Shown here piece by piece: positions 1 to 18,058 of a stretch of 19,916 nucleotides of DNA. Origin of the DNA: Fibrobacteria bacterium. GTDB taxonomy: Bacteria; Fibrobacterota; Fibrobacteria; UBA11236. The position numbers and the translations under genes are program-made. The notes below the pieces were generated by a model. It was not told the DNA's origin. It ran no database searches and saw only the letters and a list, made by a program, of their open reading frames with translations. The stretch is taken from positions 1-19,916 of the forward strand of contig JAYTHY010000131.1 of assembly GCA_043732185.1 (NCBI GenBank). The letters are read 5' to 3'. The stretch's first letter is position 1. Each line of letters opens with the position of its first letter.

Positions 1-340
1 CAATCAAGTGGCTGCGTTCACTCCTGATGAGATCAAAACGCTCTCACCTGGGCAAATCAACGCATTGGGTAAAAACATTAAATACCTTAGCAACGCGGCA
101 CTGGGCGTCCTGACACCCAATGATCCTGTGGGGCATCAAATTTCTGCTATCAGTCCGGAGCAAATCACAGCGTTATCCCCCGAACAGATTAGTGTAATCG
201 CAGGAGTAAAAAATAACACCGGAATTGCTTCGCTGAACGGAGAAGCGTTTGCAAGCCTAAGTCCCGTCCAAATCGCAATCCTTACTGCTGCCCAAAAAGC
301 ATCCTTATCAGCAGCACAACACACTGCATGCGGCTGTTGA
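1..340 (+). CDS. C-terminal fragment of a protein with tandem 8-residue (L/I)(S/T)PxQIxx repeats; function unknown; truncated by the window edge
   Basis: The frame is open from position 2 (AAT CAA GTG...) to TGA at 338-340. Repeats: FTPDEIKT-LSPGQINA, ISPEQITA-LSPEQISV, LSPVQIAI-LTAAQKAS-LSAAQHTA. Ends in CGC. Confidence 0.8.
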   Translation, partial: NQVAAFTPDEIKTLSPGQINALGKNIKYLSNAALGVLTPNDPVGHQISAISPEQITALSPEQISVIAGVKNNTGIASLNGEAFASLSPVQIAILTAAQKASLSAAQHTACGC

Positions 341-429
341 GTTTTTAATAAAAAAATCTACCCCCTACCAATGCGGCGGGCGCCTCAAATATGTTACTGA
401 TGCTGTAGCGTCTATGAAAACCACTAAGT

Positions 430-1149
430 CTAAGGCACGCAGTTCGCTCCCAACGCGCAATTCATGGGCTCATCTTTTAGCGTCTCCGCATCCACCCAAT
501 CGGCGGGCACAACTGTAAGGTTTAGACGTTTGCATTCGTCCATAACCAACTTTGCGCTCCAATCGAAAACCATTCCATAAAACTTGCTGCCTTCCACTCC
601 TGGACGGCGGGCAATAGCGCCGATGAATCGGCCTAAATGATCTTTCAGGAATTTTCGGGTCGCTTCACCGACTCTTTCCGCGCCTTCGGAATCATTGGCT
701 TCTGTTAGATGCACTTCCTTCATCAGCATCAGGGAATAGAATTCCAATTCGATGGCCACATGGTCCAGCATTTCCATGCCACCCAAAGAGGTGTCCAGTT
801 CAAATCCAAAGGCTTTATAGAATCCGGCGATATCGCTGAGTTCAGTACCCTTGGCCATGGCGCGGCGACGGTCGTATTCGGTTTCATAGATGGGATTGGA
901 ATCCTTGCCATTGTCGAAAATGGTGATGTATTCCGATTGGAGATCCTGAATGTTTTCCGGTAAGGTTCGTTCCAGAATCATGTCGCGGAGTTCCTCTGGA
1001 ATAGTGATGTTATCATCATCAAGCAGTAAAGGGACGTTTTCAGAAATGAAATCCATAGGGTATGACGTTAAAATGGAAGCCAGTACAAATGGAGCAGGAT
1101 TGGTTTTGGTTGGAAGGGAATCTTTGGCCGGAATAGATTCGGTAGTCAT
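430..1149 (-). CDS. TorD/DmsD/NarJ-family molybdoenzyme maturation chaperone (delta subunit, NxrD-like), 239 aa
   Basis: Motifs PIYETEY, LSDIAGFYKAFG, EMLDHVAIELEF and FLKDHLGRF are typical of the TorD family. The start was moved to the ATG at 1149 (MTTES...), which follows GAGGAG and lies 1 nt after the upstream stop. Last gene of the operon. Confidence 0.9.
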   Translation of the reverse strand: MTTESIPAKDSLPTKTNPAPFVLASILTSYPMDFISENVPLLLDDDNITIPEELRDMILERTLPENIQDLQSEYITIFDNGKDSNPIYETEYDRRRAMAKGTELSDIAGFYKAFGFELDTSLGGMEMLDHVAIELEFYSLMLMKEVHLTEANDSEGAERVGEATRKFLKDHLGRFIGAIARRPGVEGSKFYGMVFDWSAKLVMDECKRLNLTVVPADWVDAETLKDEPMNCALGANCVP

Positions 1150-1150
1150 T

Positions 1151-2011
1151 TTATTTCTCCTCGATTTGGAAGGGCGTCCAAGCCATGGTAATGGCTTTGC
1201 GCGATCCGACTTCATCTTTTCCACCCTGCCAAACCGCAACCCCGAAGGAAGATCCTTTACCGATTTCTAATACCGAACCACCCGGACACTTGAGCGCGCG
1301 GGAAATGACAACAACCCATTGGCCATCTTTCCATTCCCCATGCCCAATGGAATTTCCACCTGCTGTGACAACGGATGTTCCAAAACCTTCCGCTAGCATT
1401 TCATCCACAGCGCGTTTGCGGCTCGACTGCGGATTGCCTGCTGCGATAGCGGGAGAAAAAGTTTCCATTTGCTCTGTCGTTGCTGCCTTCAACTTGCCCC
1501 GATCCGGAAATTCATTGGGGTAGATATCGGAATGCATATTGGGGTAAATATCCTGCACGGTTTTTTTTCCGACTTCCGCATCGTGTTGGTATTGGGCTCG
1601 CCAATGGAAGATGTTCACCGGGTTCTTGGCAACGCCCATGAAGATGGGGGGAGGCGCGGCATTGTCCAAAACCGGAAACTCCAAGGCAACGGCATCGGAA
1701 AATTCAGCCAGTCTACCCGCTTCGGAATTTTCCTTATCGGCCCATCGCAACCGAAAAGCAATGTACTTGCCATCATGGACGATTTGCACCATGACCTTTT
1801 CGGTTTCAGCTTTGGCCGGCATTGGCTTGGTTATCATCTGGGCCATTAACATTACTGAGTCAGCGGGGACGCCACTCCAATAATCGGCGTTTATCATGGG
1901 CGGCTTGGAAAGGTCCGCGGCCACTTTATGCACGGAATAATCATCTGCCCCAGCCATGGAATAGCAAAGGGCAGCGAGGGATATCGATAGGTAGTTCTTC
2001 ACCGGATTCAT
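1151..2011 (-). CDS. Periplasmic heme b gamma subunit, ethylbenzene-dehydrogenase EbdC/NxrC-like
   Basis: N-terminal Sec-like signal (MNPVKNYLSISLAALCYSMAGA). EB_dh-type motifs: HDGKYIAFRLRWAD, FSDAVALEFP, PIFMG (candidate Met ligand), VNIFHWRA, AEGFGT, W..GQW.VV..R.L, AVWQG...E.GSRK (candidate Lys ligand). No CxxCH. RBS AAGGAG. Confidence 0.88.
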   Translation of the reverse strand: MNPVKNYLSISLAALCYSMAGADDYSVHKVAADLSKPPMINADYWSGVPADSVMLMAQMITKPMPAKAETEKVMVQIVHDGKYIAFRLRWADKENSEAGRLAEFSDAVALEFPVLDNAAPPPIFMGVAKNPVNIFHWRAQYQHDAEVGKKTVQDIYPNMHSDIYPNEFPDRGKLKAATTEQMETFSPAIAAGNPQSSRKRAVDEMLAEGFGTSVVTAGGNSIGHGEWKDGQWVVVISRALKCPGGSVLEIGKGSSFGVAVWQGGKDEVGSRKAITMAWTPFQIEEK

Positions 2012-2020
2012 TCCGACTCC

Positions 2021-3151
2021 TTAAGGTGTATTGTTTCTGGAGACTTTGAGCTTGTCATCATACATGGCCCGTTCGAAAATGGGTTCCGTTACCGGTACCC
2101 GGACAATTTCATCGCCCTTTTCGTCGAAGCCCATGGCCATGCCATCCTTCACCTTGAAGCTATGCATGATGCGGTCTGTACTGCCAATCAGGACCATCAA
2201 TCCTTGGGAGATGGGATCATTTTTCAAGTTCTTGTAATTCTCAATCGCCTTATCCACCTTGGGGCCAAACATCTGCAAGAGGTAATCCCGGTCTGCATGA
2301 ATCGGCGGGATGTAATAGATATTCGGTTCTAAACCCAATTGAGGATAGTAGGGAAGGGCCAGTTCCTTTTTATGGATAAGGTAATCCACTGGATTGTCTT
2401 CACGCAGATTCCAAGGAGGATTCACAAAACCCATCACCCGGATTTTTCCGATGCAATTTTGCACACACATGGGCTGATAACCCTTCTCCACGGCTGGATA
2501 GCAGCCAATGCATTTTTCACTGGTGCGGGTATGTGTGTTGTACATTGATTTTTTATAGGGACAAGCTCTAACGCATTCGCCATACCCTTTGCAGCGGCTT
2601 TGATCGATCAAGACAATGCCGTCTTCTTCGCGTTTGTAAATGGCTTTGCGCGGGCAAGAGGCCAGACACGCTGGATAGGTGCAATGCGCGCAGGTTCTCG
2701 GCAGATAAAAAAACCATTTGTCATGAGGAAGACTTATTTCCTGACCGGTGGTGACATTGCCTAGGCAGTCGTCTTCACCATTATTGGGATACATCCAATC
2801 TTCATCCTTGGGGGCGAAATGGGCTACCACTTCCGTAGGTTTAGCCGCTTCGAATATGGTTTTACCATAGTACGGCTCTTTCGCCTTCCATGCCTGTTGG
2901 CCCAGTTGCTCAAGAACACGGACGTCCCAAGCCAAGGGATAGGAGCCATAAGGTTTGGTCTCCACATTATTCCAGAACATGTATTCCTGGCCTTTGCCGC
3001 TCGTCCACGTGGTCTTGCAAGCCAGCGAACACGTTTGGCAAGCGATACATTTATTCAAATCGAATACAATGGACCATTGCTTTTTGGGACGATTCTCCGC
3101 ATAGGGATATTCCATCTCACGCTGTAGGTGCCAATTCTTTACCTTTGCCAT
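2021..3151 (-). CDS. nxrB: Iron-sulfur beta subunit of nitrite oxidoreductase / periplasmic Nar-type enzyme (NxrB/NarH-like)
   Basis: Four Cys groups: CIACQTCSLAC, CAHCTYPACLASCP, CKGYGECVRACP ([3Fe-4S] type, Tyr in place of Cys) and CIGC...CVQNC. GQEYMFWNNVETKPYG and AIYKREEDGIVLIDQ are NarH/NxrB hallmarks. The N-terminal NWHLQREMEYPY resembles the periplasmic NXR clade. The symbol reflects the family, not a proven reaction direction. Confidence 0.9.
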   Translation of the reverse strand: MAKVKNWHLQREMEYPYAENRPKKQWSIVFDLNKCIACQTCSLACKTTWTSGKGQEYMFWNNVETKPYGSYPLAWDVRVLEQLGQQAWKAKEPYYGKTIFEAAKPTEVVAHFAPKDEDWMYPNNGEDDCLGNVTTGQEISLPHDKWFFYLPRTCAHCTYPACLASCPRKAIYKREEDGIVLIDQSRCKGYGECVRACPYKKSMYNTHTRTSEKCIGCYPAVEKGYQPMCVQNCIGKIRVMGFVNPPWNLREDNPVDYLIHKKELALPYYPQLGLEPNIYYIPPIHADRDYLLQMFGPKVDKAIENYKNLKNDPISQGLMVLIGSTDRIMHSFKVKDGMAMGFDEKGDEIVRVPVTEPIFERAMYDDKLKVSRNNTP

Positions 3152-3154
3152 GTC

Positions 3155-6100
3155 TTAACCCTTCTTCTTCATAAAGTGGCCCTTCAAGTATTCTTTCATC
3201 GCTTGATTTTCGTAGGTCGGCCGGAAGCCTAGGGCCGCCGGTCTCCACATGCCTTGACCATTCAAACCTCCGTTTTCGGCCTTGGTGATTTTCACGAAGG
3301 ATTCGCGCGGTGCGCCTGTGGGGCAATGGATATCGGCCGCAAAACCTTTCTCTATGCCTTGACCAAACATGGTTTTATGCACCAAGGTTTCGGTCATTTG
3401 CGTGGGTCGTAGCCAAGCGCGTGTGGCGCTTTGATGGGACCCATACCGGTACATGGACTGATAATTGGTTTCCGGACTCTTGGCCAAACCATCCGGCCTG
3501 GTTTCCGCGCCCTTCACGCTCCCAAAAGTAGACCCGTACATATTGTGCCATGTGCGTGTTACCCCCCGTGGTGTGCCTGGATAATACCTGGCTCTGAGCA
3601 TCAGCCTAGCCACCTTATATTCTTCCGTTCCCGGTTTGTGACCTCTAAACGGGCGGTCTTCCGGATCCGCATCGATATAGACATAGTCTCCGTCTTCCAC
3701 ACCCAGTGCCTTGGCGTCCAGTGGGTTGATGTCCACGTACCCTTCCACGATGGACGGCATGCGCTTGTCATGGCGATACACGTCACCGAATGGACCAAAC
3801 CAGATGGCATTGATATCCGTATCGACCGGCGTCGAGTGGGCGCCATGGCGATACTTGGGGGTGTGGTAGATATGGGTGTAGTTTTTGAGCTTGAGCGGAT
3901 GTTCGCTCTTGAGCATTTCTTCACCGGACATCATTACATTACGTGCTTGTCGCGTTTCAGAGCTGACATCCTTTTCGTCAAAGCCATAATCCTTCGGGGT
4001 TTTAAACCGCATGGCGGCATGTTTCTTACCTACAATGACATTGGGCTCATGGGGCGTCGAGTCCACCGGTTCCCGGTAAATGACCATGTTCTCACCGCCT
4101 TCGACGAACTCGACCTCGGGACGATAGAATTCCAGGCGTCCGGATTTCGTATGCCAGGGTTTTTCCGACCTCGCCTGTTCATAGGAAGAGATGCGCGGAT
4201 ATGTGCGATTGTTCATCAAAGTGGGAATACCCTGTTTGGCCTTATTCTCCATATCGTTGATGGTATTGCCCTTCAAGGTTGCCGATGCATTGACGATTCT
4301 TTGGAGATATTCCGATGTGTTTCCTTCGGTGGCAAACTTCCACATGTCGGACATGCGTTTGTCATTCGTCACCTTGGCCATGGCATTGGCCACGCCGGCG
4401 ATGATTTCAATATCGGCTTTCGTATCGAAGATTCTCTCCAAGGGTGTTCTTGGAAATACTTGTAGGAATGGATTCGAACAGGATCCACACATATCCGGTT
4501 GCTTGAACTCGGCCCAGGAATCGCAGGCAAAGACCAGGTCCGAGTACTCGCAGGAACCGGTCCACCACCAATCCGAATAAGCAATGAATTCCAGTTTGGG
4601 AAGCGTGTTGTTTACCACATCAAAATGCCATTTGATATTACCGATTACTGAGTTTGAATTGTTGAGCCACATGCCTTTGGTTGGAGCCGGCATATGACCC
4701 TGGCCCGTGAACATTTTATCGCCCACCTTTAGCGGCCGGTCCCCGTAGTTGAAATAATGTAGAGATTCATAGTGTGAATATTTTTTGACCGTGGGTTTTC
4801 CGCCCACTTCCATTTGCAAATTGAAAGGATCTTCGGCAGCGTATACCGGCTCACCGCCAATCAAAGCTGTGCGATAATTGCCGGCATAACTTCCGACATT
4901 GCCACCGGCAAAGCCTACGTTTCGGGTTAAGGCCGCTACCATGAAAATGGCGCGATCTTTAAGGTCGGCATTGAAGAACTGATTGGGTCCCATGCCGCAT
5001 GCAAAGATGGTCTTTTCCTTATTCTTGGCGATTTCCTTGGCCAATTTTATGATGCCGGTAGCGGGGCATCCAGTAATTTTTGATACTTGAGCCGGGGTCA
5101 TATTTGCGTCCAGGTATTCCTTTGTCAGGCTATACACGGTGCGCACATCCACCTGAGTTCCGTCCAGCAGTTTAATCTTTGCCTGATGTTTCAATTCAAT
5201 GGTTGCATTCAATTTTTTGGCATGGTCGCCATAATCATCGCGGGACACGGGAACATATTTCTTGGTCTTTTTATCAAAGACGACAAAGGGCTTAAAGTCG
5301 CCGCGCATCGCCTCGGGAACAAACTGTTCCAACTGCTCGCTGCCAGGCAAGGGTTTGTCGGTTTTCTGCATGAACTTTACCGACGTCAGCTCCGGCGCCT
5401 TGAAGTCTGCGATGAATTCATCTGGGCGGAGAGGTTGCAGGGTATCCAGTCGTATCAGAAACGGAAAATCGGTTTTGTTTTCCACGAAGTCTTGATCATA
5501 AAGATTATTGGCCATGATATATTGGCAAAGACCCAGAGCGAAGGCCGGATCTGTTCCCGGTCGAATCACCAGCACATCGTCCGCCTTGGTTGCGGTGGCG
5601 CTGTATTCCACCGTTACGGCCACGGTTTTGGTGCCTTTGAGTCTGGCTTCCGTCAGCCAATGGGAGTCGGGCATTTTGGTCGTAATCCAGTTCATACCCC
5701 AGACAATCAGAAGCTTGGAATTTTCCACCGTGAACAAATCGAAATCGTTAGTTTGCTGGCCCGTGACCATGGGATGTCCGGGAGGCAAGTCGGTGTGCCA
5801 GGAATACGAATCCCAGCCGCGACCTCCAGTGGCCTTGTCCGGTCCCACTCCGCGAATCTTGGAATCCAAAAGCGCCAACATATTGGCGAACCGATACAAA
5901 CCGAAAATGCGCGTAGCGCCCAAAAAGGCCATGCCCCCGCGGAACTTTAAGGTTTGAACACCTGCGCCTTCCATGGAATGGATCATGGAGGGATCGTAGT
6001 TTTGCTCCTTTAAATACTCCTCGCCCTTGGGTCCGGAATAGGTGGTAGCGATATTGGTCATGGTCTTGGCGGCGTATTCGTAAGCCTGATCCCACGGCAG

Positions 6101-6634
6101 TCTTAGCCACTTGTCTTTTCCGCGTTGGAAATACTTGGCATCCGGTTTTCCAGTTTTGGCATCGCGTGGATAACCGGCATCGACCCATTCCTTAAACCCA
6201 CGACGAATCATTGGGGCTTTGACGCGCCGATCCCCGTAGAACCTACGCACCAGGGCCAAACCCTTTTGGCAAATACGCGGATCCCAGCGATGCGAGCTTT
6301 GATTCCCATACAGATCCACCGCTTTGCCATAACCATAGCTAGGGCCGATTCTTTGCAGCACACCGTTTTTGACCTTGGCTTTCAGTAGGCAATTATGCGT
6401 GTCATTGGGCGCGCAGAGAAAGACGAATTCAGAATCGTGCTCGAAAATATTCCGGTAGGTTTTTTCCCACTCCCGATCCGGATAGGCCGCCAGTGGATTG
6501 TCGATAGCCGTCGGCTTAAAATAGCGGAGCGGGGTTGCCTGCGCCCATTTGGCTGCCGCGAGCGAGCCCCCCACAATGCCCATGCCTTTGACGAAACTTC
6601 GCCGACTGATTCCTTTATTAATCTCTTCGCTCAT
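3155..6634 (-). CDS. nxrA: Molybdo-bis-MGD catalytic alpha subunit, type II DMSO reductase family, NxrA/periplasmic NarG-like, Tat-exported, 1159 aa
   Basis: Tat signal SRRSFVKG plus hydrophobic stretch and AQA cleavage site. FS0 motif [10 protein letters not shown]39-C. Mo-ligand region [20 protein letters not shown] aligns with NarG [20 protein letters not shown]. Also [21 protein letters not shown] and [13 protein letters not shown] at 6634 follows GGAGGA and overlaps the upstream TGA (ATGA). Confidence 0.92.
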
Positions 6635-7029
6635 GTTCTTTCCTCCAATTTCGTGCAAAGACGGGTGGGCTCACCGGTCATGATCGAGAAGACCATGTCG
6701 GCGGGCCAGGTTATGTTTCGATTCACACTGAGTTCACCGGCTTGATTGGCTGCAATCGCATAGTAGATAGGGGATTCGGAAATGGACCGAATGCGCAAGC
6801 CTTCAGGTAGAGATTCTACCAAGAGGGAGTCGGATCCTACCGGCCTTTCAGTTCCAACAGGAAAATCGGATAGCCTTCCGATTTTAAAGTTCGATAATTC
6901 GATGGATCGTCGTCGTTCGTGGGCTGGCATTCGAACCTTGGCCATCGATGGGTCGTTTGACTGTGCAATGGAATTCTTTTCCCAAAATGCTCCAAATAAA
7001 AATGACCTTCTTCCCATCGTTGCCATCAT
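6631..7029 (-). CDS. Hypothetical protein: Rieske-like fold remnant without CxH/CxxH cluster ligands, about 132 aa
   Basis: Coupled to nxrA by an ATGA overlap. Starts (7029 or 7026) just after the upstream stop, with an AGGGA RBS. Contains RRSFL, FKIGRLSDFPVG and Y.I....GEL.V segments like PetC/QcrA-type Rieske proteins. Confidence 0.7.
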   Translation of the reverse strand: MMATMGRRSFLFGAFWEKNSIAQSNDPSMAKVRMPAHERRRSIELSNFKIGRLSDFPVGTERPVGSDSLLVESLPEGLRIRSISESPIYYAIAANQAGELSVNRNITWPADMVFSIMTGEPTRLCTKLEERT

Positions 7030-7036
7030 GAATTCC

Positions 7037-7900
7037 CTAAGCCGCCGTGGTTCCAAGCACCGCTTGCGGTGTGACATCTTTAAGGGAGAGCCCAGGAAAT
7101 TTTTCTTTTACGAGGTTGTGAAATTGCATTCCCAAAAGGTTGCTGTTCCCGCATAGCAAATCAGTCGAGGACGAAAATTCAAAAAACAGGACCCCTTCGC
7201 GGAAACCTTTGAGGACGATGGAAATTCCCGAAGTGCGTTGAAAGTAAGCAGCGATTTCGAAAAGTTCCAAGGCCATATGTTCGGGCAGAGGCCCCCAGGC
7301 CAATGCTTCTGAATCGCTGCGGGCCGATTCTGTAAAAAAAACATCCGTACAAATAGCATCTCCATGTCTGACCGTGGCATGCCGAGCCAATCGCTCCTTT
7401 TCTCCCAGTCCCATCACCAATCCATCCAAGGCTTCCCGCCAGTAATCGCAGGCATGAGAACCGGATTCTACGCAGTAGTCACAGCCTTTACGATTCAAAG
7501 TGCGGGCGTTTTCGCTTACTGTCCAGTCCCCTTGTACGCAAGGTATATTCGATTCAGTCAAAATCTTTTGAAAATCCTCGACTTCAAATGTTAGTCCCAG
7601 GCGTTTAGACAAGCTCAGCGCCAATTTCCTGCTTTTATCAAATATGCTCCGTAAAAGCGTATCCTTGGCCTTTTCCTTTTCATCCGCATTCATGGATTCG
7701 GATTCGATATGCGTGAAAAAAAGATTTACCAAGTAGGATTCAATGGCAAACGATTCCGATGTCGTAGTTTCCGCCCACGCAGTAGCCGATCCTGCCCCTT
7801 CTGCCGGATCAATTTCCGGAAATGCCGAAATTCTTGCTTTAAGCCATCGTTGGTTAAAATCGAAACTGTCAAACTGCTGTAGAACTTTTGTCGCGTCCAT
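7037..7900 (-). CDS. Hypothetical protein: central V4R/MetOD1-like Cys-containing domain plus C-terminal NifU-C/Nfu-like domain
   Basis: GCDYC-x7-C-x7-GLVMG...HATVRHGDAIC fits the V4R-family Cys pattern. The C-terminal ISIVLKGFREGVLFFEF...C...LVKEKFPG resembles an Nfu domain. First gene of the operon. No obvious SD, so the start is uncertain. Confidence 0.7.
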   Translation of the reverse strand: MDATKVLQQFDSFDFNQRWLKARISAFPEIDPAEGAGSATAWAETTTSESFAIESYLVNLFFTHIESESMNADEKEKAKDTLLRSIFDKSRKLALSLSKRLGLTFEVEDFQKILTESNIPCVQGDWTVSENARTLNRKGCDYCVESGSHACDYWREALDGLVMGLGEKERLARHATVRHGDAICTDVFFTESARSDSEALAWGPLPEHMALELFEIAAYFQRTSGISIVLKGFREGVLFFEFSSSTDLLCGNSNLLGMQFHNLVKEKFPGLSLKDVTPQAVLGTTAA

Positions 7901-7915
7901 TGATTGGGGACTGAA

Positions 7916-7932
7916 AGCAAGTAATGCGCCAG
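7916..7932 (-). promoter_or_regulatory. sigma54 (RpoN) -24/-12 promoter for the molybdoenzyme operon
   Basis: The minus strand reads CTGGCGCATTACTTGCT: GG-N10-GC, close to the consensus YTGGCACG-N4-TTGCW, and oriented towards the 7900 start. Confidence 0.7.
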
Positions 7933-7994
7933 ATACTAAAGTCTCACTATTAACGAAAATTCCACTATTACGAGACTTAATTTAAACCTAAGGC

Positions 7995-8016
7995 TTGCCA
8001 GTCTGGCAATTTGGCA
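7995..8016. promoter_or_regulatory. Putative transcription-factor/enhancer site: palindrome TTGCCAGTCTGGCAA plus overlapping TGGCA-ATT-TGGCA
   Basis: Perfect 7-1-7 inverted repeat at 7995-8009. Three TG(C/G)CA pentamers in 8-bp phase (7996, 8004, 8012), about 65-85 bp upstream of the sigma54 -24 element. Confidence 0.55.
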
Positions 8017-8098
8017 AAGGTGTAATGACTGCTTTGTCAAATTGCGGGAAAGCATAAATGCTCTATTCGATTCAAAGTTGCATTCAGAAAAATCTTTA

Positions 8099-9493
8099 TC
8101 ACAATGCCTGGGAATATTGGGGCGATGCGTTTGCCTCTTTGGGTTTTAGCATCGGATCAAAGGCGGAAGCAACAGCCCGCGAAGCATAGTGACCATTTTC
8201 TGTTAGGCAAACGTAGTTTCCGACCAGCGTGGCGAGGCCATCAGCAATCAGCGGCGCTAGGTTCGCTTTAACATCCACCATGTAGGAAGTCTTCCAGTCC
8301 CTTGTAAGCTGCTCTACTTCCAGGCACGCTTGGATTTCTACTTCACCATCGCAGAGCAGACTGTTGATAATATTGCGCACGGCTATGTCTTGAGGCCTCA
8401 TTCGGTAGGCCGTTTCATGGGAAAGGTTTCCGGCATTTACCAAAGTCAAATACTTATCCAAATCCTTGGCGTTTTGAATATACCCTTCATGCAATTGGCT
8501 GATGGCTGATGCGCCCAAGGCATATACTTGGCCTGCTCGCGCTGCAGTGCAATAGCCCTGGAAATTCCTGTGGAGTCCGTGGTTATTGGCCGCGATGGCC
8601 AATTCATCCTCCGGTCTTGCAAAATGATCCATGCCGATGGGAACAAATCCTGCTTCCATCAAAGTTTTTCTGGACTCCCAGGCAATGTCCAGGCGTTCTT
8701 GCACTCCAGCCATGGGCAGCGTTTTGAGTAGGCTTTGGTGGCCCTTTACCCATGGAACGTGCGCATACGGGAAGAGAGAAATTCTATCCGGAGCGGCATC
8801 GATGGTTTTTTCTATCGCTATGCGAAAGGACTCGGGCGTTTGATAGGGTAGCCCATAAATCAGGTCAAGATTATTTCCGCTGAATCCATTTTCCCTGGCC
8901 ACCCGAAACAAATCTTTAGGCGGTACCTTCGGAAATTTTCGATTCACTGCCGCCAAAACCTTTTCATCAAAATCTTGAATACCGATGGACAAGCGATTGA
9001 AGCCCATGGAACCTAGCTCTTGTACTTTTTCCAGGCTTAATAAATTTGGATCGCATTCAATGGCGATTTCCGCATGGGGATCCATGTGCATGGTGGTTTT
9101 AAGCTTTTGGAGCAATCCCTGTAAATAGCTATAAGGAACAGTATTGGGTGTCCCGCCTCCAAAATGAACTTGGGTTACGGTGCGAGTAGGGTCGAGTAAG
9201 GATAAAAGAATATCGAATTCCTTATCCAGTGTCTCCATATAATTCCTGATGAACGCGCCAGGTCTTCCAATCTCGGTATGGCAACCACAAAAGAGGCAGC
9301 GCTTAGGACAAAAAGGAATATGAAAATAAATTGAGGCGTGACGTGGCCCTACGTGATTGGAACGGGTGATTAAATCTAACGTTCCGGCTTCACTTGGGCT
9401 TTGCGTAAAATAGGGCGCTGGTGGGTAGGAGGTATACCTCGGAACTGCCCAATTGTATTTCTTAATGATCTCCAATCCCGAATCCGATGCCAT
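8099..9493 (-). CDS. hemN: Oxygen-independent coproporphyrinogen III oxidase/dehydrogenase (radical SAM)
   Basis: PRYTSYP N-terminal motif, YFHIPFCPKRCLFCGC radical-SAM motif, HFGGGTP, GFNRLSIGIQDFD, DLIYGLPYQT, IGMDHFA and the HemN-specific HRNFQGY. RBS AGGAG. Confidence 0.95.
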   Translation of the reverse strand: MASDSGLEIIKKYNWAVPRYTSYPPAPYFTQSPSEAGTLDLITRSNHVGPRHASIYFHIPFCPKRCLFCGCHTEIGRPGAFIRNYMETLDKEFDILLSLLDPTRTVTQVHFGGGTPNTVPYSYLQGLLQKLKTTMHMDPHAEIAIECDPNLLSLEKVQELGSMGFNRLSIGIQDFDEKVLAAVNRKFPKVPPKDLFRVARENGFSGNNLDLIYGLPYQTPESFRIAIEKTIDAAPDRISLFPYAHVPWVKGHQSLLKTLPMAGVQERLDIAWESRKTLMEAGFVPIGMDHFARPEDELAIAANNHGLHRNFQGYCTAARAGQVYALGASAISQLHEGYIQNAKDLDKYLTLVNAGNLSHETAYRMRPQDIAVRNIINSLLCDGEVEIQACLEVEQLTRDWKTSYMVDVKANLAPLIADGLATLVGNYVCLTENGHYASRAVASAFDPMLKPKEANASPQYSQAL

Positions 9494-9557
9494 GTAAAAC
9501 TCCTAGCTAGGTAAAGCGATTCCATATGGGAACCATACGGAATACATATGCACCAAT

Positions 9558-9574
9558 CGCAAATTTGGTGCCAC
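9558..9574 (-). promoter_or_regulatory. sigma54 (RpoN) -24/-12 promoter for hemN
   Basis: The minus strand reads GTGGCACCAAATTTGCG: TGGCAC-N5-TTGC with exact GG-N10-GC spacing, about 65 bp upstream of the hemN ATG. Confidence 0.75.
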
Positions 9575-9623
9575 CATTCCCTACACTAAAACGGCTACAT
9601 CAGTTCAAAATTTGAATATCCCA

Positions 9624-9665
9624 TGTCAAAATGGCAAAATAATTGAAATTTATGACAAAATGGCA
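9624..9665. promoter_or_regulatory. Paired putative activator boxes TGTCA-AAA-TGGCA (9624-9636) and TGACA-AAA-TGGCA (9653-9665)
   Basis: Two 13-bp near-identical, quasi-palindromic boxes spaced 29 bp start to start, upstream of the hemN sigma54 promoter. Confidence 0.6.
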
Positions 9666-9683
9666 GGCTTAAAATTATATGGA

Positions 9684-10907
9684 TTACCGATGAGCGTTAA
9701 GCATTTGAATATTTAAAGTGTCGGTAATATCTCTAAGATCAAAGGGGTTGGTTCTGTTGGAAAAAAAAGTTCTGGCATCAAGCAGGGGCAATCCCGTATT
9801 AAAAAGGTGATTGAAAATGATTCTAAAGAAATTGACTGGTGAAACAGCTCCAGTGAATTGTTTTTCTTGAGCGCCGCCGGGTAGATACAGCGCGGCCAGA
9901 ATGCCATGCCGTTGATGCAAAAAGTCCAGCTCGTTCGAAAAATCCATGACAGATTCACCATGGTCGGAATGAATAAGTATTACAGCTTGTCCCTTTGAGT
10001 CCTTGATAATCTTGTCAACTATGGCTAGTAACCGTTGGTTGAGATATGTGATTTCGTCGGTGACAGAGAGGCGGAAAAGCCTAGGATCGGTTTTGCGCAA
10101 AATATTCAAGTCAGGTATATCCTCCCGTAATTCGCCATTTGCCCCGAATGCAATGGGTGAATGTGGCGCAAGAATATGGCAGAAAACATATTTTGGGCCT
10201 GGCTCTAGAGGAGCCTCCATCAAGTAATTAAAAGCGAAAAGAATCCGGTTCCTGTGTTGGGATTGAATGCTAAGATCATTATACCCAGCAGTTGCAAGCA
10301 GGTGTGGGATTGGAGTCATGTTCAACACTCCGTTTTGAAATTCATTCAAAATAACATTGCTGAAAATACCTTCCGGAGCTTTAATGATATCCGCTTTTAG
10401 GGGAAAGGTATTCTCCCATCCATTAGGGATTACTTTCCATTTGTACCCGTTAGAGAGTAAAAACTGGGGGACCTTGGCGTTATTTTTTAAAGATTCTAGT
10501 CTCTTCCAATTAGGTGATGTATGTGAAAGGTCAACGAAGTGGCTGTCGAAGTAGTTAAAATTTAAAGTGGACGTCAAGGATAAAGCGGTTGTGGAGTAAT
10601 TGGAGTAACTTTCCCCTCCGATGTTAAATCCCCTTTGGCGTAGAGCTTGGATGAAACCGCTATTGTCAAATCCATAAATATCCTTAAGTATGTCAGCGCG
10701 TGAATACGCATCCAGCATTATATGATAAATATCCGGACGGGATTTCATTTCTAGAGTTGCGTTATTTACTGTAAATAGTTTATTCAGTGGAAAAGGACGG
10801 TATTGCGGATTTTCGAATGCTTCGCGATAAAAAGATTTAGACACCGAAATTAAAGGAAGGGATAACAGAAGCAGGCCAAGGACATTTAGTCGCGGGGACC
10901 AGTTCAT
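9684..10907 (-). CDS. Sulfatase/alkaline-phosphatase-superfamily (LTA-synthase-like) extracytoplasmic domain; probable C-terminal part of a split gene
   Basis: PDIYHIMLDAY, SNYSTTALSL (Thr/Ser nucleophile region), HILAPHSP and ILIHSDHG metal-binding motifs. One N-terminal hydrophobic helix. Confidence 0.8.
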   Translation of the reverse strand: MNWSPRLNVLGLLLLSLPLISVSKSFYREAFENPQYRPFPLNKLFTVNNATLEMKSRPDIYHIMLDAYSRADILKDIYGFDNSGFIQALRQRGFNIGGESYSNYSTTALSLTSTLNFNYFDSHFVDLSHTSPNWKRLESLKNNAKVPQFLLSNGYKWKVIPNGWENTFPLKADIIKAPEGIFSNVILNEFQNGVLNMTPIPHLLATAGYNDLSIQSQHRNRILFAFNYLMEAPLEPGPKYVFCHILAPHSPIAFGANGELREDIPDLNILRKTDPRLFRLSVTDEITYLNQRLLAIVDKIIKDSKGQAVILIHSDHGESVMDFSNELDFLHQRHGILAALYLPGGAQEKQFTGAVSPVNFFRIIFNHLFNTGLPLLDARTFFSNRTNPFDLRDITDTLNIQMLNAHR

Positions 10908-11260
10908 CAGCGATGCTTTTTTTTCCAGAACAGGAAAAACACACCCATGTTCATGCTGATAAATATGCTTAGGATAATGAAATTGGTCCCAGAAATAATC
11001 TCTTTGAATTGGGTGTAAAGGCTCCCGTATAAAAAGAAAATTCCGAAATTGGTGCTTAACCAGAAAGCAGCTTTGTGGACATCCTTGAATAGGCTCCAGC
11101 TAATCCCTAAAAAGAGTGAAGCAGCGAGTAAAGCCCAGAGCACGGGATATAAGGCAACGAGAGGTGAGTAGCGGCTTATGTTTTGAGAATAAAGAAAAAT
11201 CGGAAAATAACTGGCCAGTAAAAGTGGGTAAAATGGAAAGCGAAACGACATGATATTCAA
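10907..11260 (-). CDS. Multi-TM membrane segment; probable N-terminal part of the sulfatase-like protein (frameshifted)
   Basis: About 4 hydrophobic helices. Ends TGG AAA AAA AAG CAT CGC TGA. A -1 shift in the A8 run continues in frame into 9684-10907. Start overlaps the upstream stop (TTGA). Confidence 0.7.
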   Translation of the reverse strand: MNIMSFRFPFYPLLLASYFPIFLYSQNISRYSPLVALYPVLWALLAASLFLGISWSLFKDVHKAAFWLSTNFGIFFLYGSLYTQFKEIISGTNFIILSIFISMNMGVFFLFWKKKHR

Positions 11261-12663
11261 GAAGGTTTTGAGAAAAGATAAAGAATCCGTTCGCTCCCTT
11301 GTAGTGCGATTTTGTCTCTTAGTTCAAACTGTTTCTTGAATGCGGCTTCAAACCCTTCTTCAGAATATTCGCAATAAGTGTCTTCTCGATTTTCAAGCAG
11401 TCGGATAAACTGTGGGTCGGATTTTGGCACGAATTCAATGATGATATTGGTAGCCAGTCTGGCTAAAAACCTTACGATGTGCCCAAGAGGGATGTTCAAT
11501 GCCACGGCTAAGTGGTGGACAAGTGCTAGGGCCAGTATCGTATCGGCATTGGCCCTGGAAAATAAGGAATCTCTTTCCTGATTTCCCCAGCCGATTCCCG
11601 GCGTGGGGTTGCCGAGGTCCATGACTAAGGGTAATAGATTCGACTCCTTCTCCACTTTTACTTGCTGCCAGTTCAAATCCACCGACATGGGATCTAAATC
11701 AAATGCGATGGTGGAAATGCCAGCGGCGGATGCCAGCCGACTGAATTTTCCCGTGTTGGCTCCTAAGTCCCAGATTATCTTGGCATTCACCTTTTTTATC
11801 AGCTTTTTTACGTACTCCTTTTTGTATTGAAATGCGGCAGTGCTGTAATTGTTGTCTGCATAATAATTGGACCAATCGGATTTTTGGGCCTTGATTTTCA
11901 GCCTGCTTAGACAGGATTCCAAATTGTCTATAATCCCGGATAATTGATATTGACTGATGCTTCTGGGGCCTGTGCCTTTTTTGGAGAAGCTATTTTGCGC
12001 CCAACCATGCAAGTGGATATGGATAAAGGTGGAGAGCTCCAGATAGGTGCGTGTGGGCAAAATAGAACTGGCCACGTGAAGAGGAATCCCATCTAGATAG
12101 ACGCGCATAAGTTTGGCCAAGCCGATGTCCACTTTCGACATCAACATTATCGGTGCCAGAAAGTGCTCGCAGAATTGTCTATAGGCAACCCATGGAGTGC
12201 CTTTCACGTACATTTCAAAAGACAGTGTATCAATTAAAACCGGCTTGCCGTGATGAAACTGGATATTATAGGCGCTGGCATCCTTTAGGGACATGCCATA
12301 TTCCATGGCGAGTTTTTGGATTTTTAAAGTTGCTAGGGCGGCATCTTTAAATTGTCCGAAACACCATTCACATGGGTAGGATACAAAGGAGACTTTTTCC
12401 GGTTTAATCACGAGATAGCTGTTGGCATAGTCTAAGGGTGAAACGGAAGTGACTTCATGAGGTATCAACAAACCTTCCGATAACAGTCTTTGATACAGTC
12501 CCGATTCCATCAGATGGCAATAATGCTTTTGGTAAGTGAAATTTATTTGGCGGTACACCGTATTCTTATAATTGAAAACGGTTCCGGATCGGTCACGAAA
12601 GGATCCGCCCAAGGCTTGGGGGGAGTGTGTAGAGAGACCCGTTTCAGGATGGCTTAAAGGCAT
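11257..12663 (-). CDS. NoeA-like protein: N-terminal kinase-like domain plus C-terminal class I SAM methyltransferase
   Basis: GSFRDRSG, FVSYPCEWCF.Q.KDAAL.TL and LKDASAYNIQF...IDTLSF (DxxxxN...D pattern). C-terminal WDLGANTG, AFDLD and LALALVHHL. Confidence 0.8.
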   Translation of the reverse strand: MPLSHPETGLSTHSPQALGGSFRDRSGTVFNYKNTVYRQINFTYQKHYCHLMESGLYQRLLSEGLLIPHEVTSVSPLDYANSYLVIKPEKVSFVSYPCEWCFGQFKDAALATLKIQKLAMEYGMSLKDASAYNIQFHHGKPVLIDTLSFEMYVKGTPWVAYRQFCEHFLAPIMLMSKVDIGLAKLMRVYLDGIPLHVASSILPTRTYLELSTFIHIHLHGWAQNSFSKKGTGPRSISQYQLSGIIDNLESCLSRLKIKAQKSDWSNYYADNNYSTAAFQYKKEYVKKLIKKVNAKIIWDLGANTGKFSRLASAAGISTIAFDLDPMSVDLNWQQVKVEKESNLLPLVMDLGNPTPGIGWGNQERDSLFSRANADTILALALVHHLAVALNIPLGHIVRFLARLATNIIIEFVPKSDPQFIRLLENREDTYCEYSEEGFEAAFKKQFELRDKIALQGSERILYLFSKPS

Positions 12664-12726
12664 TGTTCCGGTTAACGAACTTTGGCGGTCGAACTGCTGG
12701 ACTCAGTCTAACCAAAAGTAACGGCG

Positions 12727-12921
12727 TTATTCCTTTCTGAATATGGGCAAAAATTTGTAGAAATGAACGACCTTTTTCAAAAATGCTTTAATGAAAAAAA
12801 TCCCTCCAAAAACCGTTGCGGCGATAATTTGGACAGCCATGCTGCCCGTACCAGGATCCAAGTATGCATGGGTTGGAATGGCTGTAATTAAAAGAAAAAC
12901 GAAAATGGGTATAAAACGCAT
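12727..12921 (-). CDS. Small membrane protein with AYLDPGTGS motif
   Basis: Signal-like N-terminus ending THA, then YLDPGTGS, a hydrophobic helix and a basic tail. Same strand as, and directly upstream of, the NoeA-like gene. Confidence 0.75.
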   Translation of the reverse strand: MRFIPIFVFLLITAIPTHAYLDPGTGSMAVQIIAATVFGGIFFIKAFLKKVVHFYKFLPIFRKE

Positions 12922-13059
12922 ATCTGATTATCCAATATGGCGACCCATTTAGGTCCGATTTTAACATTGTATCAAAAGATTAACCTGTATTTTACCATAA
13001 ATTCGCCATTTTTTAAAAAGTTGAATAAGCCCGCACTGCTTAAAGGGACTGTGGACTAA

Positions 13060-13089
13060 TTGTCAAAAAAATGGTTTGGACTATATATT
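13060..13089 (+). promoter_or_regulatory. Possible sigma70 promoter for the MBOAT gene
   Basis: TTGTCA-N18-TATATT in the divergent intergenic region. AT-rich context, so a chance match is possible. Confidence 0.25.
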
Positions 13090-13226
13090 TTGCACTTGCT
13101 TCCAAGTTTGCGTTTGCTGACAGCTGTGAGGCTTTCTTCGCTTGATACTTTAATCCAAGTAAAAGTAGGGGCCGAAAATAAATGGGGAAAATTTCGAGTT
13201 AATAAGGCTATCCTTAGGCATCGCCC

Positions 13227-14672
13227 ATGCTTTTCAATTCACTGAGCTTCCTCTTCTTTCTGCCCCTGGTTCTCACCCTGTATTGGTCTGCAGCAAATAA
13301 AAGCTTAAGAGCACAAAATGGATTGCTTCTGGTGGCCAGCTACTTTTTCTACGCCTGTTGGGATTGGAGATTTCTTTTCCTCCTGATTTTTTCAACTTTG
13401 CTGGACTATCTTACTGGAATAAAAATAAGTGCGTCCGTTGGAAACCAAAAGAAAATATGGCTTTGGACCAGCATCGGTATCAATTTGGGGTTCCTGGGCG
13501 TTTTTAAATATTACAACTTTTTCTCTGAATCGCTGGCCAGCGCCCTTTCCCAAATCGGATTCAAAGCGGATCTGGGAACCCTTCAAGTGATATTGCCTGT
13601 GGGTATTTCTTTTTACACGTTTCATGGATTGTCCTATGTCATCGATCTTTACAAAAACAGGATAAAGCCGGAAAAAAACTTCCTGGATTACGCCCTATTC
13701 GTGGGGTTTTTCCCATTGTTGGTTGCCGGCCCAATTGAGAGAGCCACCCATCTTTTACCACAAATAATTAAAAAGCGGGAATTCAATTATTCAAAAAGCG
13801 TGGATGGACTAAAACAAATACTTTGGGGGTTTTTCAAAAAAATAGTCATTGCGGATCATTGCGCCGGAATCGTGAATTCCATTTTTAGGGACTCATCTTA
13901 TTACTCCGGGAGTGTGCTGGTATTGGGGGCAGTATTTTTCGCCCTGCAAATCTATTGCGACTTTTCCGGTTACTCTGATATTGCCCTAGGCACGGCGCGT
14001 CTGTTTGGAATTGATTTATTGCGGAATTTTGCCTTCCCTTATTTTTCCAGAGATATTGCAGAATTTTGGAGGCGCTGGCATATTTCGCTGTCCTCTTGGT
14101 TCAAGGATTACGTCTATATTCCACTAGGCGGTAGCCGTGGTGGAACATCGCAAAAAATTGTAAATACGATGGTGATTTTTCTGTTGAGCGGATTTTGGCA
14201 TGGCGCCAATTGGACTTTTGTCATTTGGGGCCTATTGAATGCTGTCTACATAATGCCCTCTATTCTGTTCGGTACCCATAGAAAAAACATGGATGCCGTT
14301 GCCCAAGGACGAGCTTTTCCATCTATGCGTGAGGCCCAATCCATGGTGGTCACCTTTGCGCTTACCACCTTTGCGTGGATATTTTTTCGATCCGATTCCA
14401 TTGGACATGCCTTAAGATATATATCCGGGATCATTTCCTTCTCATTATTTTCTTGGCCCAATTTCCATGACATTGATGGTGTAAGTTCAGTCGCGATGGT
14501 AATCCCGATCTTTTTACTTATTGAATGGTTTGGTAGGGAACAGGAATATGCCATTGCGCGACTCGGCATGAATTGGCCAATGCCGCTTAGATGGGGACTC
14601 TATTACGGCATACTGTCGGTCATTTTCTTTTTTTCCGGTCGGGATCAACAATTCATTTATTTTCAATTTTGA
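13227..14672 (+). CDS. MBOAT family O-acyltransferase (AlgI/PatA/DltB-like)
   Basis: LPVGISFYTF, FFPLLVAGPIER, QIYCDFSGYSDIA, FWRRWHISLSSWFKDYVYIPLGG, SGFWHGANWTF (catalytic His) and C-terminal FIYFQF. Confidence 0.95.
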   Translation: MLFNSLSFLFFLPLVLTLYWSAANKSLRAQNGLLLVASYFFYACWDWRFLFLLIFSTLLDYLTGIKISASVGNQKKIWLWTSIGINLGFLGVFKYYNFFSESLASALSQIGFKADLGTLQVILPVGISFYTFHGLSYVIDLYKNRIKPEKNFLDYALFVGFFPLLVAGPIERATHLLPQIIKKREFNYSKSVDGLKQILWGFFKKIVIADHCAGIVNSIFRDSSYYSGSVLVLGAVFFALQIYCDFSGYSDIALGTARLFGIDLLRNFAFPYFSRDIAEFWRRWHISLSSWFKDYVYIPLGGSRGGTSQKIVNTMVIFLLSGFWHGANWTFVIWGLLNAVYIMPSILFGTHRKNMDAVAQGRAFPSMREAQSMVVTFALTTFAWIFFRSDSIGHALRYISGIISFSLFSWPNFHDIDGVSSVAMVIPIFLLIEWFGREQEYAIARLGMNWPMPLRWGLYYGILSVIFFFSGRDQQFIYFQF

Positions 14673-15691
14673 TGATGAAGGAGTTTATTCGAAAGTTTGC
14701 TTTATTCCTTGCGATTCTATGCCTTCCGGCTGCACTCTTATTCGTTCCATATATTTATTTTGACCCATTTAAGGTGATTCGAAAATACGATCACTACCAT
14801 GAATCAGGGCCACCGCAGTATGTGGCCTTAAATGCCGATTATGTCGCAGTGGAAACATTTATTCGGCTGTACCCATTTTACTTATATGACTCATTCATAT
14901 TGGGAAATTCACGTTCCCGTTTCTATGAGGTTGAGGCATGGCGTAAGCACATCGAGTCGGATAGATGTTTTCATTTTGACGCCGCCAATGAGACTTTATA
15001 TGGGATTTACAAAAAAATAGAGTTCCTGCATAAACGACATATAAAAATCATGAATGCACTGATTGTAATGGATAATTCAACTTTACGTGGTATTTCCAAC
15101 TCGACCGGACATTTATTTGTCAAACACCCATTACTATCAGGACAAAGCAGCCGAGAATTCCAATTGGAATTTTTTCGCGTCTATTGCTCTTTTAATTTCT
15201 TTCCAGGTTATTTGGCTTACAAGATTTCTGGAAAGGAAAAATGCAATCCGGTTTACACTTTGCACAATCCAAATTTGGAATACAGTTTGAAATACAACGA
15301 AACTCGGTTTAAAACCTGGAATGACTCCATCAGGTTGGATCCTTCACACTATTATACTGTAAAGTCCAAAAGCTTCTATAGCCGCCCCGCGGAGCAAATT
15401 GTCTCTCCGCCTGTCATTAAAGCGGAGCAGATCGAAATGCTTATGGCCATTCAGAAAATATTCAAGGACGCTCCGACACAAGTAAAAATCGTAATTAGCC
15501 CATTATATGATCAAATTAAATTAAACGATCGAGATTTAGAAATATTGAAAAATATATTTGGTGCAGAAAATATCAGCGATTTTTCAGGATTAAACCCGAT
15601 AACTGCTAACATCGAAAATTATTATGAATCGTCCCATTACCGACCAGAGGTTGCCAATAGAATTATGGACTCCATATACCAAAACAATTAA
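14672..15691 (+). CDS. Membrane-anchored SGNH-like partner of the MBOAT (AlgJ/PatB/DltD-like), 339 aa
   Basis: TGATG overlap with the MBOAT stop. N-terminal TM helix, ILGNSRS (block I Ser) and C-terminal YYESSHY (D/E-x-x-H). Confidence 0.75.
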   Translation: MMKEFIRKFALFLAILCLPAALLFVPYIYFDPFKVIRKYDHYHESGPPQYVALNADYVAVETFIRLYPFYLYDSFILGNSRSRFYEVEAWRKHIESDRCFHFDAANETLYGIYKKIEFLHKRHIKIMNALIVMDNSTLRGISNSTGHLFVKHPLLSGQSSREFQLEFFRVYCSFNFFPGYLAYKISGKEKCNPVYTLHNPNLEYSLKYNETRFKTWNDSIRLDPSHYYTVKSKSFYSRPAEQIVSPPVIKAEQIEMLMAIQKIFKDAPTQVKIVISPLYDQIKLNDRDLEILKNIFGAENISDFSGLNPITANIENYYESSHYRPEVANRIMDSIYQNN

Positions 15692-15707
15692 CTCTCATTT
15701 CAATCCG

Positions 15708-16847: not shown

Positions 16848-16920
16848 GCCATCCTTACCAGGTCGAAGGTTTTGCAATCATCAGAAGATGGATTATTATA
16901 GGATGGATGCTTTCCAGCCT

Positions 16921-18030: not shown

Positions 18031-18058
18031 TCAATGGCTCCCACACAAGATGAATAAG

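Follow-up and report, generated by a model that had tools for sequence, protein, structure and literature searches.

A Tat-exported molybdoenzyme operon of the Nitrotoga/Hydrogenobaculum lineage and a cysteine-rich accessory protein in a Fibrobacteria genome

Does a six-gene molybdoenzyme operon on a contig of Fibrobacteria bacterium (JAYTHY010000131.1, assembly GCA_043732185.1) serve to oxidize nitrite or to respire nitrate, and what do its two accessory genes contribute? The window analyzed here is that whole 19.9-kb contig (19,916 nucleotides), and its host genome, G000, comprises 4.46 Mb and is rated 100% complete and 1.2% contaminated. Six open reading frames, orf1, orf2, alpha, beta, gamma and delta, lie on the minus strand between positions 430 and 7900 (Table 1). 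The enzyme belongs to a lineage already in print and its family is not new; the undescribed part is orf1, a cysteine-rich protein that tracks this subclade. We consider the enzyme to be, most likely, a horizontally spread respiratory nitrate reductase of the periplasm that receives its electrons from cytochrome c, in a heterotrophic and partly denitrifying Fibrobacteria cell. Our literature search, which had most subscription papers outside its reach, turned up no description of orf1 or of this subclade in these hosts.

Subunits and lineage of the enzyme

The alpha, beta, gamma and delta genes are predicted to encode a soluble molybdoenzyme that is exported by the twin-arginine translocation (Tat) system and belongs to the Nitrotoga/Hydrogenobaculum lineage (NxrA2, 'lineage g'). 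Alpha bears a twin-arginine motif at residues 10–16 and AxA at residues 31–33. The best solved relative, for all three structural subunits, is the nitrite oxidoreductase (NXR) NXR-ABC of Kuenenia stuttgartiensis (PDB 7B04). The FS0 cluster ligands C74, D78, C82 and C122 of alpha align with Kuenenia C67, D71, C75 and C115, while the substrate Asn77 aligns with N70 and the molybdenum (Mo) ligand Asp282 with D275 (PMC8387239). Type II enzymes were recognized by a Mo-ligating Asp within a Y-x4-D-x11-Q stretch together with an N-terminal FS0 cluster; judged by its sequence, alpha is a type II (Asp-ligated) member of the dimethyl sulfoxide reductase family.

Beta (381 bits against Kuenenia NxrB) contains 16 Cys residues, of which 15 occupy the expected cluster positions and one is extra, and it lacks a leader. 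The Pfam match of gamma is to EB_dh (1.7e-31), and its M125 and K272 align with Met155 and Lys305, the heme b ligand pair of Kuenenia NxrC; no transmembrane helix is present (top hydropathy 1.13), and the leader, judged by eye, is Sec-like. Delta matches Nitrate_red_del (PF02613, 3.9e-15) and, below the cut-off, TIGR03482 (1.1e-17), with weak PDB matches to NarJ-type and TtrD chaperones. These leader motifs and domain matches bore out the preliminary description of this DNA, which had read a Tat-exported alpha, a signal-less beta, an EbdC-like gamma and a TorD-like delta as the layout of a periplasmic NXR or nitrate reductase (NAR). As compared to the Kuenenia enzyme, the FS0 Asp, the substrate Asn, the Mo-ligating Asp and the Met/Lys heme ligands are conserved, whereas the Mo-site motif differs, beta is shorter and no NXR-T-like gene occurs among the six.

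Against solved structures, alpha scored 942 bits with Kuenenia NxrA (7b04), 176 bits with 4ydd, which we take to be perchlorate reductase, 131–137 bits with NarG and 98 bits with EbdA. The scores with 4ydd and EbdA rule out a perchlorate reductase or ethylbenzene dehydrogenase; for enzymes of that group, an alpha of about 900–980 aa closest to PcrA or EbdA would be expected. Alpha also keeps the substrate Asn, which is replaced by Ile in EbdA, and lies far in the tree from the cld-adjacent enzyme L103; the clustering with perchlorate or ethylbenzene enzymes contemplated in the preliminary description was thus not observed. A cytoplasmic NarGHJI is ruled out by a TIGR01580 score of 156 bits against a cut-off of 1084, the Tat motif and the soluble gamma. 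The NxrA1 group of Nitrospira, Nitrospina and anammox NXRs was rejected likewise: the NxrA1-type protein P0124 scores 1590 bits with the Kuenenia chain, far above alpha, and the Mo stretch of alpha is of the HTDL rather than the HGDQ type. Furthermore, in a quick 41-row tree alpha falls within a 31-row clade (100% support in the Shimodaira–Hasegawa-like approximate likelihood ratio test) together with a Gaiellaceae-cluster representative and Natronococcus, represented by the longer piece of a two-piece gene, and the NxrA1-type clade stands apart. Members of NxrA1 were expected to share some 60% of residues, or more, with Kuenenia NxrA, following the identity bands in the Extended Data Fig. 1 legend of PMC8387239. 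The two pieces of the Natronococcus occultus gene lie unannotated on a plasmid (L100:8001-11512), where ric, a gene of the heme-copper oxidase family and one for an Mrp ATPase are found nearby.

The lineage assignment is based on the PDB scores, on trees whose anchors include no named Nitrotoga, Nitrospira, Hydrogenobaculum or Kuenenia sequences, and on a by-eye comparison with the alignment in supplement file 4 of PMC8387239, whose PDF text is scrambled and whose row order was checked through residue numbering. According to the reviewers' file of the same paper, the Nitrotoga NXR and the Hydrogenobaculum and Beggiatoa NARs form one lineage. As in the Nitrotoga/Hydrogenobaculum/Hydrogenobacter enzymes (PMC6050957, PMC12823411, PMC8387239), the genes follow the ABCD order and encode a Tat-type alpha, a signal-less beta, a soluble EbdC-like gamma and a TorD-like delta. 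Nitrotoga nxrABCD resembles the present operon in the lengths of alpha and beta (1169/385 aa, versus 1159/376 aa here) and in its sub-cut-off TIGRFAM scores (10.1101/317552). In the alignment, the HTDL-type Mo stretch and a second stretch are shared with the lineage, but the Mo stretch of alpha ends in QT rather than QM; gamma is also shorter here (286 versus 371 aa), and the host, unlike those of the lineage compared, is heterotrophic and lacks RuBisCO. The by-eye comparison with Nitrotoga itself is mixed, since the FS0 stretch is common to the Nitrotoga row while two other stretches are like Hydrogenobaculum. The preliminary description, which had placed alpha and the short beta closest to the Nitrotoga branch, was right about the sister lineage, but the two alpha motifs that it quoted are nearer the Hydrogenobaculum NAR row than the Nitrotoga row. 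The lineage includes one characterized periplasmic NAR and many untested proteins (PMC6050957). It is represented by 581 sequences in Microflora Danica and occurs in hundreds of non-nitrifier genomes (PMC12823411), so that a non-nitrifier host is the rule.

Host gene set, spread of the operon and direction of the reaction

All three organism-naming matches among the 120 listed for ribosomal protein L2 are Fibrobacteres/Fibrobacteria, which agrees with the earlier claim that the host is not a known nitrite oxidizer. In G000 the genes for alternative complex III (ACIII) adjoin those for a caa3 oxidase; the genome also encodes a second A-type oxidase, complex I and TatC, as well as a cytochrome c-dependent nitric oxide (NO) reductase, NorCB (C114:43824-45856), and a clade II nos cluster (C4:32410-38837) with NosZ and NosD above cut-off. 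Neither NarG nor NapA was detected in this genome, where the only other MopB genes encode NuoG and a Nas-like protein of the assimilation cluster. RuBisCO and acetyl-CoA synthase were not found in this genome, rated complete, in which the positive controls were detected. A search for ATP-citrate lyase gave no match, but its control was also undetected, and a citrate-lyase-like motif search missed even citrate synthase; two 2-oxoacid:ferredoxin oxidoreductases are present. One query each for chlorite dismutase and a formate/nitrite transporter returned no match in the genome. Among the genes that the preliminary description had considered informative, ACIII is present; RuBisCO, acetyl-CoA synthase, nirK above cut-off, nrfA and, with one query, the nitrite transporter were not found. 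The glycoside hydrolase search gave only one weak GH5 match, and cellulolysis is not claimed. NorCB and the clade II nos cluster, with no respiratory nitrite reductase detected, could represent a sink for NO and N2O in which the Nir step is missing. The assimilatory nitrate cluster (C74:147963-163065) comprises an ABC transporter, NarK, a NirA-family protein, a DmsB-like iron-sulfur (Fe-S) protein and the Nas-like molybdoprotein.

Related loci were analyzed as the best 80 of 579 found (65–93% identity to the window), and gene counts were taken from the first 50 of 79 carrier genomes. The best 80 loci come from Fibrobacteria, Bdellovibrionota, Myxococcota, Sericytochromatia, Leptospiraceae, Acidobacteriota and others, which are mostly heterotrophic groups. 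Within the Fibrobacterota the operon is confined to 5 of 296 genomes, all from the host's family, and to two of 14 congeners, with the unpublished genome G011 counted as a non-carrier. A careful tree of 14 rows unites the window with two Fibrobacteria-titled loci (support 100/99), and this clade is nested in a group (100/100) that also contains Pseudobdellovibrionaceae sequences. Monophyly of the five Bdellovibrionota sequences was rejected (approximately unbiased test, p 0.0005), for a group that was picked in the light of a previous tree; the grouping of the window with L001, L003, L005 and L007, at 61/90, was neither established nor rejected. The tree placement and the rejected monophyly make transfer of the operon between phyla likely. 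One Bdellovibrio metagenome-assembled genome holds two divergent copies of the operon, L008 and L040 (78% and 70% identity to the window), of which a single one includes orf2.

Among the 80 loci, the neighboring genes include moaA (52), moeA (26), moaC (24), cytochrome c (13), FNR-like (5), NnrS-like (5 and 3), norB (3) and nosZ (3). In the same-genus genome G001, a single 64-kb contig carries a cbb3 oxidase, hemN, moeA/moaA, this operon, NnrS, nos, Ric, an Rrf2 regulator and NorCB. Of the 65 loci with enough upstream DNA, 12, four of them close kin, have a box of the FNR/DNR type with no more than one mismatch ahead of orf1, where base shuffles predict 0.6. In the 50 carrier genomes, clade II nosZ was above cut-off in 24 and nirK in 31, with one or both in 38, while cytoplasmic narG was counted in two and RuBisCO in one, as a partial gene. 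Near the congener's operon lies a cluster of c-type cytochrome genes (L116:12209-17816; G001:C219), one of which encodes a fusion of a di-heme cytochrome c with an EbdC-like domain; this cluster, absent from G000, is a candidate electron-donor module.

The host gene set, the carrier counts, the G001 island and the FNR-type boxes in relatives together favor respiratory nitrate reduction. The preliminary description held that direction cannot be read from sequence; this is true of the enzyme, but the genome context is informative. In the proposed scheme, delta would act with orf1 and orf2 to mature the alpha–beta pair in the cytoplasm, Tat would export the pair, and gamma would cross by Sec and then join it. 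At low oxygen, ACIII would oxidize quinol, and electrons would pass from periplasmic cytochrome c through the heme b of gamma and through beta to Mo, where nitrate would be reduced to nitrite. NorCB and clade II NosZ would draw on this cytochrome c pool as well.

Several points weigh against nitrate reduction as the main function. The operon includes no quinol dehydrogenase, and the link to ACIII is inferred. NXR-type enzymes are reversible (PMC8387239), and Nitrotoga, which has an ACIII, uses a member of this lineage to oxidize nitrite (PMC6050957). In G000 the best NirK match reaches 46.7 bits against a cut-off of 296, no NirS match is convincing, and neither NrfA nor a cbb3 oxidase was found. 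The nosZ count comes from carriers only. NirK is encoded in all four other carriers of the family and also in 12 of its 20 non-carriers (including G011), and nirK occurs in nitrite oxidizers (10.1101/317552); the gene is therefore non-discriminating. Moreover, four of the seven perfect FNR boxes come from related Sericytochromatia, and G000 has none at the operon (best, three mismatches), nor, nos or ACIII.

Since these enzymes are reversible and Nitrotoga also uses ACIII, oxidative or two-way use is possible. A mainly nitrite-oxidizing enzyme, which would oxidize periplasmic nitrite for energy or detoxification and pass electrons through gamma and cytochrome c to the A-type oxidases, in a lithoheterotrophy without CO2 fixation, would share its lineage and ABCD layout with the Nitrotoga NXR (PMC6050957, 10.1101/317552) and its Met/Lys heme b site with the high-potential NxrC. 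The ACIII–caa3 pair, the second A-type oxidase and the undetected respiratory nitrite reductase of G000 are also consistent with it, and, according to Kitzinger et al., no other cultured member of the lineage has been tested for nitrite oxidation (PMC6050957). However, the operon is present in a single copy in G000, compared with two to three in Nitrotoga, the carriers nearly all lack NarG and, but for the one partial gene, RuBisCO, the neighborhoods and boxes of relatives speak of low oxygen and NO stress, and the quoted alpha motifs side with the Hydrogenobaculum NAR (PMC8387239). We thus regard this function as unlikely. A redox valve at the oxic–anoxic interface, which would reduce nitrate as oxygen falls and re-oxidize the accumulated nitrite on its return, appears more doubtful still. 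The Kuenenia NXR does work in both directions (PMC8387239), this DNA occurs in sediments, and nitrite would accumulate given that no dissimilatory nitrite sink was detected in the host, but the valve would require a cytochrome c of high enough potential. That the substrate is another oxyanion (chlorate, perchlorate or selenate) or an organic compound such as ethylbenzene is highly improbable in view of the scores with 4ydd and EbdA, the retained substrate Asn, the distance from L103 and the single-query search for chlorite dismutase.

If the enzyme is a nitrate reductase, many predatory and heterotrophic bacteria without narG start denitrification with it; under the database label 'nitrate reductase / nitrite oxidoreductase', its carriers would be miscounted as nitrifiers or as non-nitrate-respiring. 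If instead nitrite oxidation were true, nitrification would include non-autotrophs. Other Fibrobacterota have been named as denitrifiers, without this enzyme (10.1101/2024.07.11.603112).

The accessory proteins orf1 and orf2

The orf1 and orf2 proteins are unrelated to each other, and neither profile finds a PDB match by sequence. Pfam gave only chance-level matches in 60 members of the orf1 family; all 101 homologues returned are without Pfam domains, and every named one is 'hypothetical'. Matches in the Atlas all fall below 0.8 and serve only as leads. In a structural model of orf1 with a predicted local distance difference test score of 91, a V4R/H-NOX/TRAPP-type domain (residues ~20–193) is followed by a NifU-C-like alpha/beta domain (residues 204–281). 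The top VIA-align Z scores are 8.3 for Bet3, 7.3 for DmpR and 7.2 for CnfU. The N-terminal part reaches Z 6.4–8.3 with Bet3, DmpR, PoxR and H-NOX, within the range of common arrangements, and in the C-terminal part the C-terminal domains of zinc transporters tie with CnfU (Z 7.5 versus 7.2). The modeled V4R-type plus NifU-C-like fold is thus suggestive, not decisive. Residues C121, C140, C151, C184 and D186 are invariant in all 156 sequences, and C250, in the C-terminal domain, is conserved in 122 of 136 ungapped rows. The V4R sensors DmpR and PoxR are like orf1 in fold (Z 6.7–7.3) and in being cysteine-rich, but orf1 has no ATPase or DNA-binding domain. Nfu proteins bind their cluster through a CxxC motif. 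The Nfu-type carrier CnfU is similar in fold (Z 6.7–7.2), whereas orf1 has the single conserved Cys250 in place of CxxC. The earlier label 'V4R/Nfu-like' accordingly has suggestive support at the level of fold, and neither a Pfam match nor a CxxC motif backs it.

The distribution of orf1 follows that of the enzyme. It lies upstream of alpha in 70 of the 80 loci, and two of the ten misses have no upstream DNA. Among the 296 Fibrobacterota genomes, orf1 and alpha occur in the same five. A survey of 251 genomes from another phylum gave 16 with a periplasmic alpha; orf1, adjacent to it, is present only in the six with at least 66% identity, and none was found in the remaining 245. The most likely role, proposed with moderate confidence, is that of a dedicated metal- or Fe-S-binding maturation factor; as the main alternative, orf1 may be a redox or NO sensor. 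An Mrp/NBP35 ATPase gene lies near the Nitrotoga and Natronococcus operons, where the present operon has its two upstream accessory genes instead. That orf1 replaces such a carrier is unsupported: Mrp is found in none of the 80 close loci, yet also in none of the ten loci without orf1, and the host genome carries its own Mrp elsewhere. A wider proposal, that heterotrophic Fibrobacteria, Bdellovibrionota and Myxococcota of freshwater sediments and sludge run the enzyme oxidatively under oxygen, as unrecognized non-autotrophic nitrite oxidizers, and, jointly, that orf1 is a new Cys-liganded V4R–NifU maturase or a redox/NO switch controlling both assembly and export of the complex, seems to us an unlikely conjunction. 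In any case, orf1 provides a clean subclade marker and a target for asking how a molybdoenzyme with a 3Cys/1Asp Fe-S cluster matures.

The fold of orf2 is more clearly defined. It matches a Kuenenia Rieske protein (9rk4) with Z 11.1 and a root-mean-square deviation of 1.6 over 70 residues, and another Kuenenia Rieske domain with Z 8.6; the top 31 fold matches are all Rieske-type domains or complexes containing such domains. However, no Cys or His is conserved in 24 aligned members, and the two Cys and two His ligands are thus absent, which leaves orf2 unable to carry a Rieske cluster. The label 'Rieske-like' in the preliminary description therefore holds for the fold, but not for a Pfam match or cluster-binding ligands. 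An N-terminal RRxF motif has no hydrophobic stretch behind it (top 19-residue hydropathy 0.48). Present in 25 of the 80 loci, orf2 most likely represents a vestigial helper protein without a cofactor. In Haloferax mediterranei, the narBCGH genes likewise specify a nitrate reductase exported by Tat; genes of the EbdC-like and TorD-like kinds accompany it, and a Rieske gene lies upstream of narG. However, the identity is only 24%, and an intact Rieske/cytochrome b pair is found there, in contrast to the ligand-less orf2. No Rieske/cytochrome b pair was found in the host genome or in the 80 loci.

Operon layout, assembly and neighboring sequence

Table 1. Coordinates of the operon genes and of the adjacent hemN in the window
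Feature	Position	Strand	Length	Description
orf1	7037..7900	-	287 aa	cytoplasmic; V4R/H-NOX/TRAPP-type fold plus NifU-C-like domain (model)
orf2	6631..7029	-	~131 aa	Rieske fold without [2Fe-2S] box
alpha	3155..6634	-	1159 aa	catalytic; Mo-bis(molybdopterin guanine dinucleotide); predicted Tat export
beta	2021..3151	-	376 aa	signal-less; four Fe-S clusters
gamma	1151..2011	-	286 aa	soluble EbdC/NxrC-type heme b protein
delta	430..1149	-	239 aa	TorD/NarJ-family private chaperone
hemN	8099..9493	-		oxygen-independent coproporphyrinogen III oxidase; TIGR00538 above cut-off

The junctions read from the sequence confirmed that the six genes are tightly coupled, with gaps of 9 nt or less or overlaps, as had been described. 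The orf1 stop is separated by 7 nt from the first ATG of orf2 (7029) and by 10 nt from the second (7026). Orf2 and alpha share a 4-nt ATGA overlap, which sets the alpha start at 6634, and GGAGG precedes this start. The remaining gaps are 3 nt (alpha/beta), 9 nt (beta/gamma) and 1 nt (gamma/delta), the delta start being 1149 and not 1239.

The assembly is sound in the operon region. One contig of a possible source run matches positions 121-10000 with no differences and even depth, and fragments from two further sediment runs, one of them from another study, cover 30 of 30 bins. The sequencing runs listed as containing this DNA include none from RNA. At positions 8-340, on the plus strand, the C-terminal end of an ALTTAQ-repeat protein (PF20080) converges on the operon; read depth increases and contigs end there, which a repeat would be expected to cause.

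Promoter and terminator scans of the window gave only chance-level results, and the Rfam scan gave no match. Two palindromes lie upstream of orf1 (~7975-8040), one of the TGAC-N6-GTCA type near 8025 and the other a 15-bp inverted repeat nearer the start; they are possible regulator sites. The hemN gene, 198 nt upstream of the operon on the same strand, is a context gene for which operon membership is not claimed, and it occurs near the operon in only one of the 80 related loci. Beyond it, positions 9684-19907 form a block of lower guanine–cytosine content (38–46%) that encodes glycosyltransferases, methyltransferases and an MBOAT acyltransferase with its partner. This block probably represents a separate locus for surface polysaccharides, with no relation to the operon.

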